64,000 nt of DNA from Minisyncoccota bacterium. Its GTDB lineage: Bacteria > Patescibacteriota > Minisyncoccia > Phycocordibacterales > UBA2100. Shown one piece after another: positions 5,911 through 11,932 of this stretch. How positions within the stretch are numbered: position 1 is the stretch's first letter; each line of letters opens with the position of its first letter. Position numbers and translations under genes: made by a program. Below the pieces are notes generated by a model that searched no databases, was not told the DNA's origin, and worked only from the letters and a program-made list of their open reading frames with translations. The stretch lies in contig JALHPE010000003.1 in assembly GCA_022842645.1 (NCBI GenBank), forward strand, positions 10,445 through 74,444, in the 5' to 3' direction.

Positions 5911-6255
5911 CTAATTGCCTCGTGGTTTAGACGAGGTTCCTGCCGTAGGAGTAGTGGTTCCCGACCGCGTGATTGGCAAGAATGGATTCGGGCGACCAAC
6001 CGGCTCAGGCATGATTTGGGTTCCCGTATCCACAAGCCGGAGGAACGCGGGGTCGGAAAGAATCGTTCCCGCAAGCGTAATCGTGCGTAGCTGAAGAAGT
6101 GTCTCAACGACATCACCATCACTCGAGCCCTGCACGGTTAAATCTTGAGTTGTGAGAAGTGGCTCGGGCGTCGTATCGCGGAGGAAGAGATACCAGCCCG
6201 CAAACGCCGCAAGGACACTGCCGAGTATTAGTATGAGTGTTGTGTTATTGGCCAT
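5911..6255 (-). CDS. small single-TM pilus-operon protein (PilP-like position)
   Basis: ORF with internal start MANNTTLILILGSVLAAFAGWYLFL (one TM), Thr/Pro-rich tail. Sits between pilO-like and pilB; 8-bp overlap with the upstream gene. Confidence 0.4.
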   Translation of the reverse strand: MANNTTLILILGSVLAAFAGWYLFLRDTTPEPLLTTQDLTVQGSSDGDVVETLLQLRTITLAGTILSDPAFLRLVDTGTQIMPEPVGRPNPFLPITRSGTTTPTAGTSSKPRGN

Positions 6256-6262
6256 ACGTAAT

Positions 6263-6829
6263 TTATTTGAGCCAGTAGGTGCGGAGCGTGACGTCAAAGC
6301 GGTACAAAGGCTCAGTGCCTTGGGCGCTCAAGTCAGGATCCATACTGAGCTCCACAAGATCAACAATGCGCAAACTATTCTCTAGAGCATTCATAAACTC
6401 CACGAATTTCGGGTACGAACCGCTCGTGGCAAATTTAAGAGTGAGCGAATCGGTTTCATTGTAATCTGCACCAATAACCGCTGCGTCCCCGGTGTTTGCA
6501 GTAAGTCCTTGAGCATCGATGACTACGTTTTGCAGGGCAAAGCCGTGCTTCGATGCGAGTGTGTCGAGATCTAAGACGAGGCGCACATTGTCAACGTGAT
6601 CCGGAAGAAGTTTCTTCAGACGATCAATGTCGACCGGATTGAATGCGTTATATCTCGAGAGCAGTTGCTGTTTCAAACGCTGCAGTTCATCGGCTTTGGA
6701 GAGCGCACTATCATATTCGGTGATTTGTACTTGCATGGCGCGCGCACCGTCATACGCAGGCTTCGTATACATCACAAAGATTGCGACCGATGCAGCAAAG
6801 AGAGCGATAGTAAAAATAATACGCATCAT
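6263..6829 (-). CDS. pilO: PilO-like pilus assembly protein
   Basis: 188 aa, N-terminal TM (IIFTIALFAASVAIFVMY) then coiled-coil and periplasmic domain. Gene order pilM-pilN-pilO. Confidence 0.55.
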   Translation of the reverse strand: MMRIIFTIALFAASVAIFVMYTKPAYDGARAMQVQITEYDSALSKADELQRLKQQLLSRYNAFNPVDIDRLKKLLPDHVDNVRLVLDLDTLASKHGFALQNVVIDAQGLTANTGDAAVIGADYNETDSLTLKFATSGSYPKFVEFMNALENSLRIVDLVELSMDPDLSAQGTEPLYRFDVTLRTYWLK

Positions 6830-7512
6830 AGAGTTTCTGGTGTTCCTTGCGGCTCACCAGCAGGTTCGAGCGGCGTGCCGAACGGTGTGGGGAGTGCGGA
6901 TTCTTCAGTTTGATCTGGCAATGTCACCTGCGCCGCGCGATACCGTAGTTTGGTTGGATCAACCGCAGCAGTAAAATCAAAGCGCACCCCCTCAATAGTC
7001 CTATTGATGTTGGAAAAAATCGGATTAAGAATGAGACCACTTCTCGCTAAAAGATCCGCCTGAAGCGCGATGGAATTGACGCTCTGTGCAACCCCCTGCA
7101 TCGCAATACCCATTTCGGTGTCATTCTGGGCAGTGAAGCTGAAGTTTGAAAACGCGACCGTCTGGAGCGTCAGCTGCTGTAACAGTTCGAAAATATCAGA
7201 GGGAGCAGTGTGCGTCGCAAGCACCTCATCAGCAGCTTTCATACGATCATCAAGACGCGTGAGCTCGCTGATAAGCGCAGGCTCGAATGCTTCTTTCGCT
7301 CGCTGCAGCTGCGCACGCTTGCTCTCCGCAGCAGTCGAGAGGTACTGCACATATAAAAAGACGCCAACTGCGAGTACGACGGAAGCAAAAAAGAGCACCA
7401 ATGAGACGAGGAGCCCGAGATCAGCGCCACCTTTTTGCTCGCGCCGTCCTCCAGCACTCGGCGCCGAAATAGGTGCTTGTGGTATAAACGAAGAACGAAT
7501 GTTTGATTCCAT
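6826..7512 (-). CDS. pilN: PilN-like pilus assembly protein
   Basis: 228 aa, single TM (LVSLVLFFASVVLAVGVFLYV) followed by coiled-coil. Directly downstream of pilM with 4-bp overlap to pilO. Confidence 0.55.
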   Translation of the reverse strand: MESNIRSSFIPQAPISAPSAGGRREQKGGADLGLLVSLVLFFASVVLAVGVFLYVQYLSTAAESKRAQLQRAKEAFEPALISELTRLDDRMKAADEVLATHTAPSDIFELLQQLTLQTVAFSNFSFTAQNDTEMGIAMQGVAQSVNSIALQADLLARSGLILNPIFSNINRTIEGVRFDFTAAVDPTKLRYRAAQVTLPDQTEESALPTPFGTPLEPAGEPQGTPETL

Positions 7513-7530
7513 AGAAAGTCCCTAACTTTC

Positions 7531-8682
7531 CTAGCCCTTCCTGAGTTCACGTAACGCGAGTCCGACCGGCACTGCAAAACCAGGGCCGATCGACTGAAGC
7601 ACTTGATCAAGAAATGCCGGTGCTTCAGTACGACTAAACGGATTCGCAATTTCCACCTGCGCGTGGAGCGCCTGATTCGCAAATCCTTGAAGTCCAGGAA
7701 GCGATGCGCCACCACCGCACAAAAGCACGTGCGACACATCTTTATTGTATCGCTTCCCGTAGCTCAATAGTACCCTATCAGCCTCTCCAAAGAGGCGCTC
7801 GAGTGTGGATAGAAGAGACTGCTTCACTTTATCATTTTCATCGACAGAAAAAGCTGAGGAACTGGTGAGCCCGCGCTCGCGCTTCACGCGCTCCGCTTTC
7901 TCAAAATCCCACGAAAGCGAGCGCGCAAGATGTTCGGTCATTTGTTGGCCACCGACCGTCGCGAGATGCGTCATGCGCACTACCCCGCGCTCGACGATAT
8001 ACATTTTTGTTGTTGAGGCACCCAAGTCAATCACCAGAACTGGTGCCAAACCATGGCCGAGGGAGCTCCGAATTGCACTGAAGATTTCTATTTCATAAAA
8101 ACGCGTGGAAAGTCCGGCGCCCGCGGCGATCGTCTGAAAATTGCGCACTGTATCGTTGTGAATGGCAACGAGAAGCACTTCTTGCCCCTTACTCTGAAGC
8201 GCCGTTTTGCCTTGAATACGATCAAAGGCCGCATCGCTTCCTTCTTCGGGCGGAATAACGAACCAATCAAGCATAACTTCCGAAACTGGCACTGGAATAT
8301 ATTTACGCGCCTCGATCGGAATCATTTGTTTTAAATGTTCCGGGTCAGTTTTGGGGAGATCGATAATCGAAACAAGGCTCGAAGAGAATGGTATCGACAT
8401 TCCCGCAACCTTTGCCGTGACATTCGCCTCCCGCATGAGGTCGAGCAGTGCTTCGGTTAAGGTTTCCGGCGAGAGCTTTACTGCTTTCCCCACTGGTTCT
8501 TTCGCATAGGGAGCAAGCGCGATTTCGCCATAGGTCTCGAGGACTGCCGCACCATGCGCAGAACGAAGTTGCACCACTTTTGCAGACGCCGCGCCTATGT
8601 CGACACCAATAACGCTACTCTCGGTTTTTCCCGTGAGCGCGGCAGAAAGCTTTTGCGTGAGCGTCCCTAACGATAACGCCAT
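7531..8682 (-). CDS. pilM: type IV pilus assembly protein PilM (actin-like ATPase fold)
   Basis: 383 aa. N-terminal VIGVDIGAASAKVVQL typical of PilM/FtsA-like proteins. Two actin-fold halves. Confidence 0.8.
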   Translation of the reverse strand: MALSLGTLTQKLSAALTGKTESSVIGVDIGAASAKVVQLRSAHGAAVLETYGEIALAPYAKEPVGKAVKLSPETLTEALLDLMREANVTAKVAGMSIPFSSSLVSIIDLPKTDPEHLKQMIPIEARKYIPVPVSEVMLDWFVIPPEEGSDAAFDRIQGKTALQSKGQEVLLVAIHNDTVRNFQTIAAGAGLSTRFYEIEIFSAIRSSLGHGLAPVLVIDLGASTTKMYIVERGVVRMTHLATVGGQQMTEHLARSLSWDFEKAERVKRERGLTSSSAFSVDENDKVKQSLLSTLERLFGEADRVLLSYGKRYNKDVSHVLLCGGGASLPGLQGFANQALHAQVEIANPFSRTEAPAFLDQVLQSIGPGFAVPVGLALRELRKG

Positions 8683-8731
8683 AGAGACAAGTATACCGTA
8701 CTTTGTATCGTGTGCGTCGTATGAAAAGCGA

Positions 8732-8765
8732 CAACTGGCTCAAATGGCGCCGATTGAGCCAGTTG
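8732..8765. repeat. ~34-bp palindromic element (copy 1), overlaps the RT stop codon
   Basis: CAACTGGCTCAAA TGGCGCCG ATTGAGCCAGTTG: 13-bp arms with one mismatch. A second 7-bp hairpin CACACGC/GCGTGTG lies at about 8776-8796. Confidence 0.5.
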
Positions 8766-9789
8766 CATATATGCGCCTCACACGCGCCTGAAGCGTGTGC
8801 GCATTGCCATGGGAGAGTAGCCCCAGATATGAATCGCGGACATGTTTATTCTCAGTGTGTGCGGCACAGTTCCGCAACATCCGTCGCTTCGTAGTCGTGC
8901 GCAGGACGCAATGGTCGGGAAAATGCACCCAGCCGAGGAAATCAACTCCAGACGCAAGAGTTGAAATTGAGATTTTGTTAGGATGCAGTTCGAGCTTGAG
9001 TGTCTCGCGCAGAAATACTGCTGCATGCGGCAGCATTTCTGTGAGTTCTCTGCGATCATGCGATAGAAAGACGAAATCATCCGCATACCGAATGTAGTAT
9101 CGTACCCTCAAGTGGTGTTTTACGAATTGGTCGAATTCGTTCATATAGATATTGACGAGAAGTTGCGAGGTAAGATTGCCGAGCGGCAGTCCCTTGCTAG
9201 GTACTCCCGAATCAAAGCTTGCGATAACGCGTCCGATGAGATCGACGATACGTTTGTCGCGAATGTGAGACGCAATAATGCGCATAAGCGTTTCCTGGTC
9301 GATCGAAGCAAAGAATTTCCGTATGTCGCATTTCAAGACCCAACACGTATGCGTATGGTTGCGCGAGACTTTGTATGCAAACGAGCGAAATCGATTCATC
9401 GCATGATGCGTGCCTTTCCCATTTCGACATGAGTATGAGTCCGCGATGAAGGTGCGGTCGAAGAATGGGTAGAGCTTGCGATAGAGCGCATGATGCAGGA
9501 GTCGGTCACGCACTGTGGCTTTGTGGATGTTTCTTGGCTTTGGGTCGGAGATGTTGAAGGCGCGGTACGGACCGTGCACGTATGTTCCTGCAACCAAGTC
9601 ACGATTGAGCGCAAGAATATTATCCATCAATCGATATTGAAATTCCTGCACATCTTGTTTCTTTCGCTTCCCGCGCACGAATTTCTTCCATGCCGCAAGG
9701 AGATTCGGAGCGGAGATGATATCCTCGTAGGTATGAGCGAAGACAAGATCCACACACCTAAGCCTGCCCCCCCCCTCACCTTTTTGCAA
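8740..9789 (-). CDS. DGR-type reverse transcriptase
   Basis: 349 aa. RT motifs: VLKCDIRKFFASID (motif A), LPLGNLTSQLLVNIYMNEFD (DGR-type [I/L]GxxxSQ instead of group-II/retron QGxxxSP), YIRYADDFVFL (YxDD), LELHPNK, FLGW thumb. No maturase/endonuclease domain. The true start may be the downstream GTG at 9753, because a C9/G9 homopolymer lies in codons 5-8. Confidence 0.85.
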   Translation of the reverse strand: MQKGEGGGRLRCVDLVFAHTYEDIISAPNLLAAWKKFVRGKRKKQDVQEFQYRLMDNILALNRDLVAGTYVHGPYRAFNISDPKPRNIHKATVRDRLLHHALYRKLYPFFDRTFIADSYSCRNGKGTHHAMNRFRSFAYKVSRNHTHTCWVLKCDIRKFFASIDQETLMRIIASHIRDKRIVDLIGRVIASFDSGVPSKGLPLGNLTSQLLVNIYMNEFDQFVKHHLRVRYYIRYADDFVFLSHDRRELTEMLPHAAVFLRETLKLELHPNKISISTLASGVDFLGWVHFPDHCVLRTTTKRRMLRNCAAHTENKHVRDSYLGLLSHGNAHTLQARVRRIYATGSIGAI

Positions 9790-9795
9790 CCGAAG

Positions 9796-10167
9796 CTCGT
9801 GCCCATAATTGAAAAAACTAAGGGTGCATACAAACTCTGGATACAGGCGCGGAGAAATATGCCGCGAACGGAACAGTTTGGGATTGGCAAGAAAACTGAC
9901 GATCTTTTTTTGATGCTTATGGAAACACTGCGCCGCGCATCATTTGCGGCGCATCAAGAGAAAATACCACTTCTCACTCATGCGGTTGGGCTCACGGATT
10001 CGCTCCGCTTTTTCCTTCAGATCGCATGGGAAAATGTTTTGGTCCGTCAGAATCAATACATTCCCTTAGCAACTGAAATCGAAGAGATTGGTCGCATGAT
10101 AGGTGGATGGCGCAAGGGTCTCGTTGCAAAAACCCCGCTTGAAAAAAGCGGGGAAAGAAAAGAGTAG
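9796..10167 (+). CDS. avd: Avd-like accessory variability determinant (four-helix-bundle protein), encoded antisense between TR and RT
   Basis: About 123 aa from GTG 9796 (ATG at 9859). N-terminal AYKLWIQA resembles the LxVWQKA start of Avd/TIGR02436 proteins. C-terminal ATEIEEIGRMIGGWRKGL resembles the conserved Avd C-terminal helix (E..RML.GLI). Stop codon TAG 10165-10167 abuts the TR. Orientation is opposite to RT/TR, which is atypical. Confidence 0.5.
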   Translation, partial: LVPIIEKTKGAYKLWIQARRNMPRTEQFGIGKKTDDLFLMLMETLRRASFAAHQEKIPLLTHAVGLTDSLRFFLQIAWENVLVRQNQYIPLATEIEEIGRMIGGWRKGLVAKTPLEKSGERKE

Positions 10168-10282
10168 CGGGAAGCAACCTGGTTGCCAGCATTCCACTCG
10201 TTCGGATTCGTCACGGAGTTCGCGAACAAGCTCCACCCACCGTTGTCGGAGTTCCAGTTCGCGTTCACGGCCCAGAGTGCTT
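10166..10282 (-). repeat. DGR template repeat (TR), sense on minus strand
   Basis: 117 bp, 111/117 identical to 10614-10730. All 6 mismatches have T in the TR on the plus strand (A on the sense strand): 10244, 10253, 10259, 10264, 10265, 10282. The first 78 bp (10166-10243) are identical. Confidence 0.75.
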
Positions 10283-10535
10283 TGTGCGTAGTGCCATCTT
10301 GTATCACCACAGTTCGACCCGCCAACTGGCGGATCTACGCCGCTGTATCGCATACGGGACCTCGAAGTCCTCCAGCATCACGCACCGATTCTTATCTTTT
10401 TTGAGGCATTCGCTCGTACGCTTACGCGAGACGCATCCAGCGCAATACTGACGACACGAATGAACGAGGTGCTGCACAGAAGTCGCGACCGCCGCACTCA
10501 AGCTATCCTCAGGGGTTAGTGTATCAAAAGTAAAA

Positions 10536-10574
10536 GACCCTCTAAATCCTGCTTGCGCGAAGATTCAGAGGGTC
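10536..10574 (-). promoter_or_regulatory. hairpin just downstream (sense) of the VR, candidate DGR homing-enhancing stem-loop
   Basis: GACCCTCT (10536-10543) pairs with AGAGGGTC (10567-10574), 8-bp perfect stem and ~23-nt loop. About 40 bp 3' of the VR end on the sense strand, as described for DGR VR-flanking cruciforms. Confidence 0.4.
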
Positions 10575-10611
10575 AAAGTATCTCAAACCCAAATTTCTCA
10601 GGGTTCAAGAA

Positions 10612-11241
10612 TCAGCGGGAAGCAACCTGGTTGCCAGCATTCCACTCGTTCGGATTCGTCACGGAGTTCGCGAACAAGCTCCACCCACCGTCGTCGGAGT
10701 GCCAGTGCGCGAACACGGCCCAGAGTGCTCCATTCTTGTCACGGACGTAGAAAATATTGGCGTAGCCATTCGTAAGAAGGTTGCCCTTCTCGCCGTTCGG
10801 TTGTTTCTCCAACATCGTCCACAGGTCGGCGAGGTATGTTTCGTGCGCCTCACCGAGCTCCTTGATGATCGGCCCGTCGACCGATGCCTTGCGAAGCGTG
10901 TGAAGCTTCAGCTCGCCTGCCGGAACGTTTTCCTCGACCTTCGCGAAGTTATCGCGGAAATTGTCCCAGACGAATGCGATCTTCACCGCTGCCTTTCGGC
11001 TGGTGTCGACCTTGAAGTGGTCTGCGGCGACAAATCGGCCGGCGCCGGATACGACAACGGTTGCGACGAAGTCGAGAAGATTCGATGCGGACTTCTTGCC
11101 GTTCGCACCAAGCGAATGGTTAAGAAAGCCCTGCATGTAGCTTCCGTCGATACTTCCGTCTTCGATCTGCCGGAACAGATCTTTGAGCTGAGAGGCCGTC
11201 ACATTGGACGAACCCTCGACGACAACTTTCTGAGCTGCCAT
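10612..11241 (-). CDS. DGR target (variable) protein, 209 aa, C-terminal VR; no signal peptide
   Basis: C-terminus ...KNGALWAVFAHWHSDDGGWSLFANSVTNPNEWNAGNQVASR is encoded by the VR. TR-encoded version ...ALWAVNANWNSDNGGW... has AAC/AAT (Asn) codons at the variable positions. N-terminus lacks a signal peptide or TM. Confidence 0.7.
   Translation of the reverse strand: MAAQKVVVEGSSNVTASQLKDLFRQIEDGSIDGSYMQGFLNHSLGANGKKSASNLLDFVATVVVSGAGRFVAADHFKVDTSRKAAVKIAFVWDNFRDNFAKVEENVPAGELKLHTLRKASVDGPIIKELGEAHETYLADLWTMLEKQPNGEKGNLLTNGYANIFYVRDKNGALWAVFAHWHSDDGGWSLFANSVTNPNEWNAGNQVASR
10614..10730 (-). repeat. DGR variable repeat (VR) at the 3' end of the target gene
   Basis: Counterpart of the TR. VR bases at the mismatch positions are C, G, G, A, A, C on the plus strand (sense-strand TR A -> G, C, C, T, T, G). 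Ends exactly at the target stop codon (10612-10614). Confidence 0.75.
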
Positions 11242-11342
11242 TGGTTTTTCTCCTTAAAGAGCATCCGGCACTATTGCCGAAGTGAAAACATCATACCACG
11301 CTACCACCCAGTTTGCAAGAGCGTAAAACGGGGCTCAAAACA

Positions 11343-11390
11343 GGGCTGTTTCAGCCCCACTGGCTCAAACGGCGCCGTTTGAGCCAGTTG
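11343..11390. repeat. small hairpin plus ~33-bp palindromic element (copy 2), between the wHTH pseudogene and the DGR target
   Basis: GGGCTG TTT CAGCCC (11343-11357), then CACTGGCTCAAA CGGCGCCG TTTGAGCCAGTTG (11358-11390). About 90% identical to copy 1 over ~36 bp. Confidence 0.5.
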
Positions 11391-11399
11391 CCATTGGGG

Positions 11400-11932
11400 C
11401 TAGGTTAGCGCGTAAAATGGTCTTTTCTGCTTCCCCACCCTGGTGAGGCGACCAGTTGTGGCAAGCTCGCGCACATAGCGGCTGGCTGTTGCATCGGAAA
11501 CTCCGAGAAGAATCTGCACATCGTTGTTGGTAATTTTCCCGCGCTCGCGTGCGAGGGCGACGATTTTTCGAGACGTGCGCGCTTTTTCCCAGCGCGTTTT
11601 TCAGCTGCGTAAGCGCGCCATGTTGCAATGCTTGGAGGAAGAGGTGCGGGCGGAGGGGTGAGGGGCACGGATATGGATGATGCCGAGGGTAGAGTGGCCG
11701 GCTCTGCATGTAAAACTGGCACCTCGGATTCAGTAGCACTTTCAATGTGGGACTTACGAAGTCCCACATCAGTCGCAAGGGGCTCCATGACGGGTTTCGG
11801 AAACTCGTCATTCACCTCTGGTGTAGATTCGGGAGCTGGCTCTTGTGCAACTTGTAGGGGTACTACAACCGGCTCCTCTACTACTTCAGGCACTGGTGTC
11901 GGTTCTATAGGCACGCTCGCCTCAGCGGTCAT
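11400..11932 (-). pseudogene. proline/acid-rich N-terminal ORF plus C-terminal winged-helix HTH in a different frame (candidate frameshifted DNA-binding protein)
   Basis: Frame B (11405..11932) encodes a Pro/Glu-rich low-complexity peptide ending ...AEKRAGKKRARLEKS. A second frame ending at TAG 11400-11402 encodes RKIVALARERGKITNNDVQILLGVSDATASRYVRELATTGRLTRVGKQKRPFYAL, a wHTH like Fic/RecG-type C-terminal domains. It is preceded by an in-frame TGA and has no start codon. The frames meet around two A5/T5 runs near 11584-11600. Confidence 0.35.

Follow-up and report, generated by a model that had tools for sequence, protein, structure and literature searches.

Introduction

How does a DGR operate when its avd gene lies on the opposite strand, wedged between the template repeat (TR) and the reverse transcriptase (RT) gene, at a place where a joint TR-RT transcript would have to run antisense through it? 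The question is raised by a locus of a Minisyncoccota bacterium within a 64,000-nt stretch of DNA (the window; contig JALHPE010000003.1). A sequence-only reading of the window had described an Avd-like open reading frame (ORF) on the plus strand, antisense to TR and RT, and had held the arrangement to be atypical, a judgement made against a benchmark (target gene, avd, TR and RT on one strand) that is the BPP-1-type Architecture B1. We set the window beside related loci taken from species-representative genomes, of which the best 80 of at least 517 were analysed.

A complete DGR in the window

The window holds a complete DGR (Table 1), comprising an adenine-specific TR/VR pair, an RT with DGR motifs, and a target gene that carries the VR at its 3' end, with an inverted repeat after it. 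TR and VR, compared on the minus strand (10281-10166 with 10729-10614), show five differences in all, and 5/5 of these mismatches fall at TR adenines. The VR extends as far as the stop codon of its target gene (10612-10614), and the gene itself has no match in Pfam or NCBIfam. The 3' arm and T-run of the hairpin downstream of the VR are conserved in the spacer alignment, and we read this element as a putative target-gene terminator, a post-VR DGR hairpin, or both. The RT matches Pfam RVT_1 (E 1.8e-25) and carries LGNLTSQ at residue 191 and YADD at residue 223, the first of which is an instance of the [ILV]GxxxSQ motif typical of DGR RTs.

Table 1. Coordinates of the DGR and of its observed and predicted elements in the window.
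Feature	Positions	Strand	Details
DGR reverse transcriptase	8740..9753	-	337 aa from GTG 9753; ORF open up to TTG 9789
Divergent avd-RT gap (candidate control region)	9754..9798	.	45 nt; 30 nt with avd start TTG 9784
C9 homopolymer	9767..9775	+	G9 on the RT strand; conserved in relatives
avd gene	9799..10167	+	122 aa from GTG 9799; stop TAG 10165-10167
Hairpin CCCCGCTT/AAGCGGGG (10153-10133) and U5 (10132-10128)	10128..10153	-	12 nt past TR, within avd codons 109-119; terminator scan
Template repeat (TR)	10166..10281	-	116 nt, 96% identical to VR
Predicted structured 5' leader of TR RNA	10282..10517	-	MAFFT and RNAalifold, covariation
Leader helix P1 (predicted)	10497-10474	-	RNAalifold consensus
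Leader helix P2 (predicted)	10453-10415	-	RNAalifold consensus
Leader helix P3 (predicted)	10385-10374 with 10295-10284	-	ends 3 nt before TR
Leader helix P4 (predicted)	10372-10356	-	RNAalifold consensus
Leader helix P5 (predicted)	10345 to about 10306	-	RNAalifold consensus
Putative extended -10 promoter box TGATACACT for TR RNA	10518..10526	-	conserved hexamer in relatives
Hairpin GACCCTCTGAATC...GATTTAGAGGGTC with T-rich tail	10537..10575	-	downstream of VR; from the sequence directly
Target gene	10612..11241	-	209 aa; VR 10729-10614 at C-terminus

The plus-strand ORF encodes an Avd

The plus-strand frame is open from 9490 to the TAG at 10165-10167 and contains both of the peptides that the sequence-only reading had picked out, AYKLWIQA and EIEEIGRMIGGWRKGL. 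That reading had proposed an HMM search and a four-helix prediction as checks, and both lend support to its assignment. The product passes the gathering score of Pfam PF22296 (bAvd) narrowly, with 41.2 bits against 40, and aligns to all of NCBIfam NF033474 (DivGenRetAVD; 1-104 of 104) with E 2.6e-15 and a score of 56.6 bits, which is below the curated cut-off of 80. A database search returned 37 homologues, all of which match PF22296, have invariant residues along their whole length, and come without exception from Patescibacteria-type sources. In a profile search of the PDB, the Bordetella phage Avd structure 4DWL appeared at E 0.87, which is not significant; the comparison of the four-helix fold is what decides the identity of the protein. 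An AlphaFold2 model built on the homologue alignment (pLDDT 91.8) predicts helices at residues 2-19, 23-49, 52-78 and 84-111 followed by a disordered tail, and Foldseek ranks 4DWL first for this model (TM 0.80/0.91, rmsd 1.6 Å), with the Avd chains of the DGR ribonucleoprotein 8UBE/8UB7 next.

Members of the Avd family are small basic proteins of about 100-130 aa that form a homopentamer, bind both RT and RNA, and are required for cDNA synthesis. The product of the window has a pI of 9.8-9.9 and a length of 122-127 aa, depending on the start codon. The mean pI of Avd proteins is given as about 9.5 in the part of Wu et al. (2018, PMC5758913) that concerns the protein. The ORF thus encodes a bona fide Avd, predicted to be a basic four-helix bundle, and its coordinates, together with the Pfam and NCBIfam matches, uphold the description of a plus-strand gene wedged between TR and RT and antisense to both. 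Its stop codon, which had been described as abutting the TR, does so with an overlap of 2 nt at the TR 3' end.

The inverted avd is the norm in Patescibacteria

Conservation of the orientation in related genomes, the comparison that the sequence-only reading had named as a further check, is nearly complete among the loci analysed. The RT is head-to-head with avd in 78/78 loci that have upstream DNA, and in 69/80 loci the TR is antisense to avd, with its 3' end placed between -14 and +32 nt relative to the stop of avd. Each related locus has between 7 and 26 adenine-specific TR/VR mismatches. The inverted position of avd is fixed across the clade.

The layout also has a published name. In their treatment of gene order, Wu et al. 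(2018, NAR, PMC5758913) define Architecture B3 as TR-(avd)-RT, with parentheses marking the reverse strand, and report there that 90% of their 126 CPR DGRs are of type B3, which hardly occurs in other groups. [quoted passage not shown] The inverted avd is therefore the norm for the lineage, already known as Architecture B3, and the judgement that the arrangement is atypical does not hold for CPR/Patescibacteria, where it is standard. An avd on the opposite strand adds nothing new in itself, being the published default for CPR DGRs. What Wu et al. (2018) say on gene order makes no mention of a promoter or terminator of the TR RNA, of a structured leader, or of a homopolymer.

A putative promoter box and a structured leader upstream of the TR

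The spacer between VR and TR holds conserved motifs that lie in different frames across loci, which marks the leader of about 225 nt as non-coding. A small protein encoded there (ORF 10501-10304, 65 aa) was considered and rejected, as its frame differs among loci and the region shows RNA covariation; no other conserved ORF was found in this spacer in the related loci.

On the minus strand, past the terminator-like hairpin of the target gene, a TAnAnT-type hexamer lies 186-288 nt (mostly 218-247 nt) upstream of the TR in 71/71 loci, a count in which a non-consensus hexamer was accepted in a handful of cases, and 39/71 loci have TGn upstream of it. Between this putative promoter and the TR, an alignment of 66 loci, from which five with atypical spacing were excluded, yields a consensus structure of 47 pairs that are 94.6% canonical, many of them with 4-6 pair types and 0-3 exceptions. 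The covariation amounts to 108 extra pair types, versus 3-11 in controls in which the partners were slid by 1-3 columns. A structured leader of the TR RNA is thus well supported by comparative sequence analysis. Searched against Rfam at E<=1, the interval 8500-11600 had two chance-level matches and no family for the leader or for the hairpin described below.

A possible primer duplex between the TR 3' end and the leader was also seen; the support for it comes from between one and three evolutionary events, its strands match badly in the window itself, and it is a lead only.

A terminator-like hairpin within the end of avd

On the other side of the TR, a perfect stem of 7-11 bp begins 0-15 nt past the TR and abuts a run of T4-6 in 66/71 loci, versus 2.5% of background T-runs. 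The stems comprise 34 distinct arm pairs, with several pair types at 6/7 stem positions. These figures come from an anchored stem search with a background control. When the sequences past the TR were aligned with MAFFT alone, RNAalifold found no pairs, the 5' arms being out of register, and a second alignment of the trimmed hairpins, which merely right-justified them, was superseded by the anchored search.

On the plus strand, the 3' arm and the U-run coincide with the conserved K-T-P codons of the Avd tail, and codon usage bears their imprint. The codon for Avd K111 is AAA in 72 and AAG in 3 of 75 loci, versus 26% AAG at the other avd lysine codons. Four-fold sites of avd carry 1.6-2.0 bits over residues 1-107, and the value drops only at T112 (1.05 bits) and at P113. 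Judged by these four-fold sites, the strand antisense to avd is free of RNA-level constraint past the U-run.

The hairpin has the properties of a Rho-independent terminator, namely a GC-rich stem of at least 5 bp, a short loop, and an immediate 3' U-run. We take it to be the terminator-like end of the TR RNA, and it may bind Avd as a stem-loop in addition to this role or in place of it; the role of terminator is favoured by the invariant U-run and by the absence of further constraint past it. The functional TR RNA most likely ends within the last ~12 codons of avd. With the putative -10 box, the leader of about 225 nt, and the hairpin with its U-run, the TR appears to be an RNA gene of its own, of about 385 nt.

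Comparison with the BPP-1 DGR

To our knowledge, BPP-1 is the only DGR with known RNA requirements, and the comparison with this system (mtd-avd-TR-brt, B1) bears directly on how the window might be transcribed. The two have in common the Avd four-helix bundle, an RT with [ILV]GxxxSQ and YxDD, adenine-specific changes from TR to VR, and a target gene whose 3' end is formed by the VR, although the Avd of the window is only about 20% identical to that of BPP-1. They differ in layout: avd of the window follows the TR and is carried by the opposite strand, whereas avd of BPP-1 lies upstream of the TR, and the interval between TR and RT is avd coding sequence here, whereas it is the ~140-nt Sp RNA in BPP-1. 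The window has a conserved structured RNA upstream of the TR and a terminator-like hairpin after it.

In BPP-1, RNA downstream of the TR (the spacer, Sp) is needed for priming and for RT-Avd binding (bioRxiv 10.1101/2023.10.23.563531). Handa et al. folded 40 nt upstream and 100 nt downstream of the TR in 278 Avd-containing DGRs, CPR among them, and read the stem-loops found just downstream of the TR in many of these DGRs as Avd-binding elements of a longer RNA (bioRxiv 10.1101/2023.10.23.563531). Set against their BPP-1 ribonucleoprotein (PDB 8UB7/8UBE), the stem-loop of 7-11 bp located 0-15 nt past the TR occupies the position of the BPP-1 Avd-binding stem-loop, and helix P3 lies directly against the 5' edge of the TR, as the cPRT-stop duplex does in BPP-1. 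The partner strand of this TR-proximal duplex is supplied by the upstream leader here and by the downstream Sp in BPP-1. A further difference from the BPP-1 RNA of Handa et al. is that the stem-loop, whose binding to Avd is putative, is followed here by an invariant U-run and then by no further conserved RNA. We consider it probable that the DGR RNA is circularly rearranged relative to that of BPP-1 into a self-contained TR RNA, with its accessory domain upstream of the TR and its terminator within the last codons of avd.

Some observations speak for a single minus-strand transcript of TR and RT that would run antisense through avd, as the sequence-only reading had supposed, so that the expression of the two would interfere or be mutually exclusive and the hairpin would be an Avd-binding element. 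The DGR RNA of BPP-1 needs about 140 nt past the TR, with TR and brt co-transcribed; putative Avd-binding stem-loops past the TR were reported by Handa et al. for 207/278 Avd-containing DGRs, CPR included; and a clear RT promoter was found neither in the window nor in the related loci. Some read-through past the hairpin into antisense avd, and on to the RT, may occur. Such a transcript is nonetheless unlikely to be the main mode, as U4-6 directly follows the stem in 69 of the 71 loci scanned, AAA is kept at K111 (72/75 loci), the TR has a candidate -10 box of its own, and the four-fold sites of avd are free for about 330 nt past the U-run, which leaves no Sp-like element there; a strongly covarying leader is found upstream of the TR instead. 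If the TR RNA ends inside the avd tail, as in the reading that we propose, the conflict between TR-RT and avd transcription would be absent.

The divergent starts of avd and RT

The sequence-only reading had placed the two starts 6 bp apart (9796 for avd, 9789 for RT) and had described them as divergent and nearly touching. The compact, divergent arrangement stands; the spacing of 6 bp, which combined a codon that is no start with an unfavoured RT start, has to be corrected to 30-45 nt. For the RT, a conserved YEDIIS motif is preceded by an ATG at a distance of 4-10 codons (mode 8) in most of 60 loci with a scorable start, and the counterpart in the window, at +8, is GTG 9753. TTG 9789 is merely the most upstream possible RT start, and several loci have stop codons between the homologous RT start and the equivalent of TTG 9789. 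By homology, the RT would start at GTG 9753 rather than at TTG 9789.

For avd, the codon at 9796-9798 is CTC, and the in-frame candidates are GTG 9799, which falls on position 1 of the NCBIfam Avd model, and TTG 9784, which would give a protein of 127 aa and lies 8 nt past the C tract (9767-9775), where the usual distance in relatives is 5-12 nt. No canonical avd start codon is present near the conserved N-terminus in 16/79 loci. In related loci, stop codons often stand directly upstream of the conserved C-run in the avd frame, which places the Avd start downstream of the run.

The avd-RT gap measures 13-72 nt across 60 related loci, and many of the loci have stops in both frames on either side of the tract within it, so the tract is non-coding; these stops also exclude the C-run as a part of either Avd or RT. 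With the RT start at 9753, an avd promoter need not lie deep inside the RT coding region, as had been supposed, but the -35 regions of both genes would still overlap the 5' end of the partner gene. No convincing promoter of RT or avd was found; after the G-run, a TAnnnT hexamer is present in 13/58 loci only. A model in which a -10 box adjoins the G-run and the RT mRNA is leaderless was set aside on this count (13/58 loci versus a background of 8%), and the G-run was ruled out as a Shine-Dalgarno site of the RT by its distance of 12-25 nt from the RT start.

A conserved homopolymer between avd and RT

A C:G run of at least 7 nt occurs in the gap in 58/79 loci, mostly 9-11 and up to 17 nt long, versus 0.14% of control windows. 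Its distance to the avd start is 5-12 nt, with no purine-rich ribosome-binding site seen there, and its distance to the RT start is 12-25 nt. Among loci that lack the C-run, two have (GA)n (L034, L039) and two have (GT)n (L077, L053) at the same place, and in a further locus (L038) the run is inverted. Tract length differs among related species, being 9 in the window, 10 in L001 and 11 in L083.

Simple repeats embedded in promoters act as phase-variation switches in the Bordetella fim genes (a C-stretch) and in H. influenzae hifA/hifB (TA repeats). The resemblance raises the possibility that the C:G tract, or the simple repeat that takes its place, is a slipped-strand contingency switch that would make DGR mutagenesis phase-variable through RT, avd, or both. 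The tract is non-coding and conserved at a length of at least 7 in 58/79 loci, dinucleotide repeats substitute for it in some, its length differs among species, and the design is like that of promoter-spacer switches such as the fim C-stretch, with the repeat likewise in a short region between divergent genes. The likeness to fim and hifA/hifB is one of resemblance only, however, as contigs of the same population show no variation in length: the window, L081 and L082 all have C9, L083-L085 have C11, and eight P0023 contigs have 12 nt with an A/C substitution as the sole difference, a weak comparison in which assemblies show only majority alleles, the tract look-up was partly biased to in-frame lengths, and the called N-terminus of the exact-protein P0023 query spans the tract. 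The promoter geometry that a switch would act on is likewise not established, and we regard the idea as doubtful.

The third codon positions of avd vary freely among related loci while the amino acids are kept, which indicates selection on the plus-strand frame. With this signature, the full-length match to the Avd HMM, the 37 homologues that all carry PF22296, the more than 500 related loci, and the confident four-helix model that matches 4DWL, we consider refuted the least probable reading by far, namely that the plus-strand ORF is a chance antisense frame, of a kind that is common and of which the window shows several overlapping examples, and owes its conservation to some element of the minus strand, for instance a spacer RNA.

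A model for the B3 locus

The best explanation of the locus overall, to which we assign a probability of roughly 80%, is a Patescibacteria-type B3 DGR with a separately transcribed TR RNA. We infer that the locus runs as separate transcription units and not as one avd-TR-RT operon, and propose the following arrangement:

(i) The target gene would end at a terminator of its own, upstream of the start of the TR RNA.

(ii) The TR RNA, of about 385 nt, would start at the extended -10 box, continue through a leader of about 225 nt and the TR, and end at the hairpin and its U-run.

(iii) Avd would be read convergently to the TR RNA, with its last ~12 codons forming the complement of the hairpin and U-run. 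The terminator scan found no plus-strand terminator after avd, so that transcripts of avd may continue in antisense through the TR boundary. At their 3' ends, the TR RNA and the avd mRNA would overlap convergently by about 40 nt (10128-10167).

(iv) RT would be read divergently from avd, across the gap of 30-45 nt that contains the C:G homopolymer.

(v) As in BPP-1, from which the analogy is drawn, Avd presumably binds RT, the complex presumably binds the TR RNA, and the adenine-mutagenised cDNA would then replace the VR.

(vi) The role of the downstream Sp of BPP-1 is probably taken by the upstream leader, and accessory RNA located there would leave the interval between TR and RT free for the inverted avd.

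Implications

In the DGR literature covered, Handa et al. and Wu et al. (2018) included, we found no earlier description of the TR-RNA leader, the putative terminator embedded in avd, or the homopolymer between avd and RT. A TR RNA that is separately transcribed and terminated suggests how the B3 layout may work without antisense conflict. If confirmed, it would define a minimal set for the reconstitution of a CPR DGR, consisting of an RNA of about 385 nt and two small proteins, and would mean that the architecture of the DGR RNA can be permuted. For the control of DGR activity, about which little is known, the conserved C:G tract in the avd-RT gap is a testable candidate. Should this tract prove to be a switch, mutagenesis would be turned on and off in subpopulations, and one hypermutation system would be controlled by another.

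The TR RNA leader

Immediately upstream of the TR lies a structured RNA leader of five helices, P1 to P5, which spans ~225 nt 5' of the TR and shows strong covariation across the window and the equivalent regions of the related Patescibacteria DGR loci (L001-L080), where it is preceded by a conserved extended -10 box. No family matching the leader was found in Rfam. In function, this leader may correspond to the spacer RNA (Sp) of the Bordetella phage BPP-1 DGR, relocated upstream of the TR. The loop of P5 carries an extra hairpin in the window that is absent from most relatives.

The last bases of the TR covary with the GAAUUG segment of the leader, with pair counts of 56 U-A and 6 G-C, and of 33 A-U and 13 G-C, a signal that reflects few independent changes and accompanies poor pairing in the window's own sequence. 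Judged from the sequences, the two segments could form a template:primer duplex, which we liken to the TR118-121:Sp53-56 duplex of BPP-1.

Features of the DGR locus and its surroundings (window coordinates)
Feature	Position	Strand	Location or basis
Type IV pilus assembly cluster	5911-8682	-	DGR directly downstream
Palindrome ACTGGCTCAAA.GGCGCC.TTTGAGCCAGT, 30-33 nt	8734-8766		One end of DGR; overlaps RT stop
Same palindrome	11359-11391		Other end of DGR; ~118 nt upstream of target start
C:G homopolymer	9767-9775	+	avd-RT divergent gap
TR 3' end, last bases xAACU	10163-10171	-	Covariation with leader GAAUUG
Leader and extended -10 box	10282-10526	-	Covariation; equivalent regions in L001-L080
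Extra hairpin CCGCCAGTTGGCGG	10316-10335	-	Insertion in P5 loop
Leader segment GAAUUG	10386-10391	-	Immediately 5' of helix P3

The avd start and the avd-RT gap

In 16 of 79 avd genes (among them those of L003, L006, L015, L016, L017, L026, L032, L033, L037, and L040), no ATG, GTG, or TTG lies in the stretch that separates the conserved N-terminal helix from the stop codon upstream of it, and not one shows a purine-rich ribosome-binding site. Public gene calls for avd disagree, some being cut to 102 aa and others running on through the C-run of the avd-RT gap. In 58 of the 79 related loci compared, the corresponding part of this gap holds a conserved C:G homopolymer of at least 7 bp, mostly 9-11 bp; a few loci have (GA)n or (GT)n there instead. 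The assemblies compared revealed no polymorphism in the length of the homopolymer.

Genomic setting of the cassette

Within the neighboring pilus cluster, positions 7531-8682 gave PilM_2/FtsA-type Pfam matches (scored on the identical contig L081). By position alone, the two small ORFs at 6826-7512 and 6263-6829 are candidates for PilN and PilO. The 209-aa target protein matched nothing in Pfam or NCBIfam.

Two public assemblies of the same strain, the Logan contigs L081 and L082, are identical to the window but end 28 nt past the avd stop, within the TR, showing that short-read assembly of these DGR loci breaks up at the TR/VR repeat.

The palindrome occurs just twice in the 64-kb window, and its copies exactly bracket the 2.6-kb DGR cassette. 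Of 60 loci tested for flanking repeats, 4 had them (the window itself, L069, L078, and L079), that of L069 resembling a tRNA 3' end. This pattern hints that the DGR cassette was inserted as one unit.
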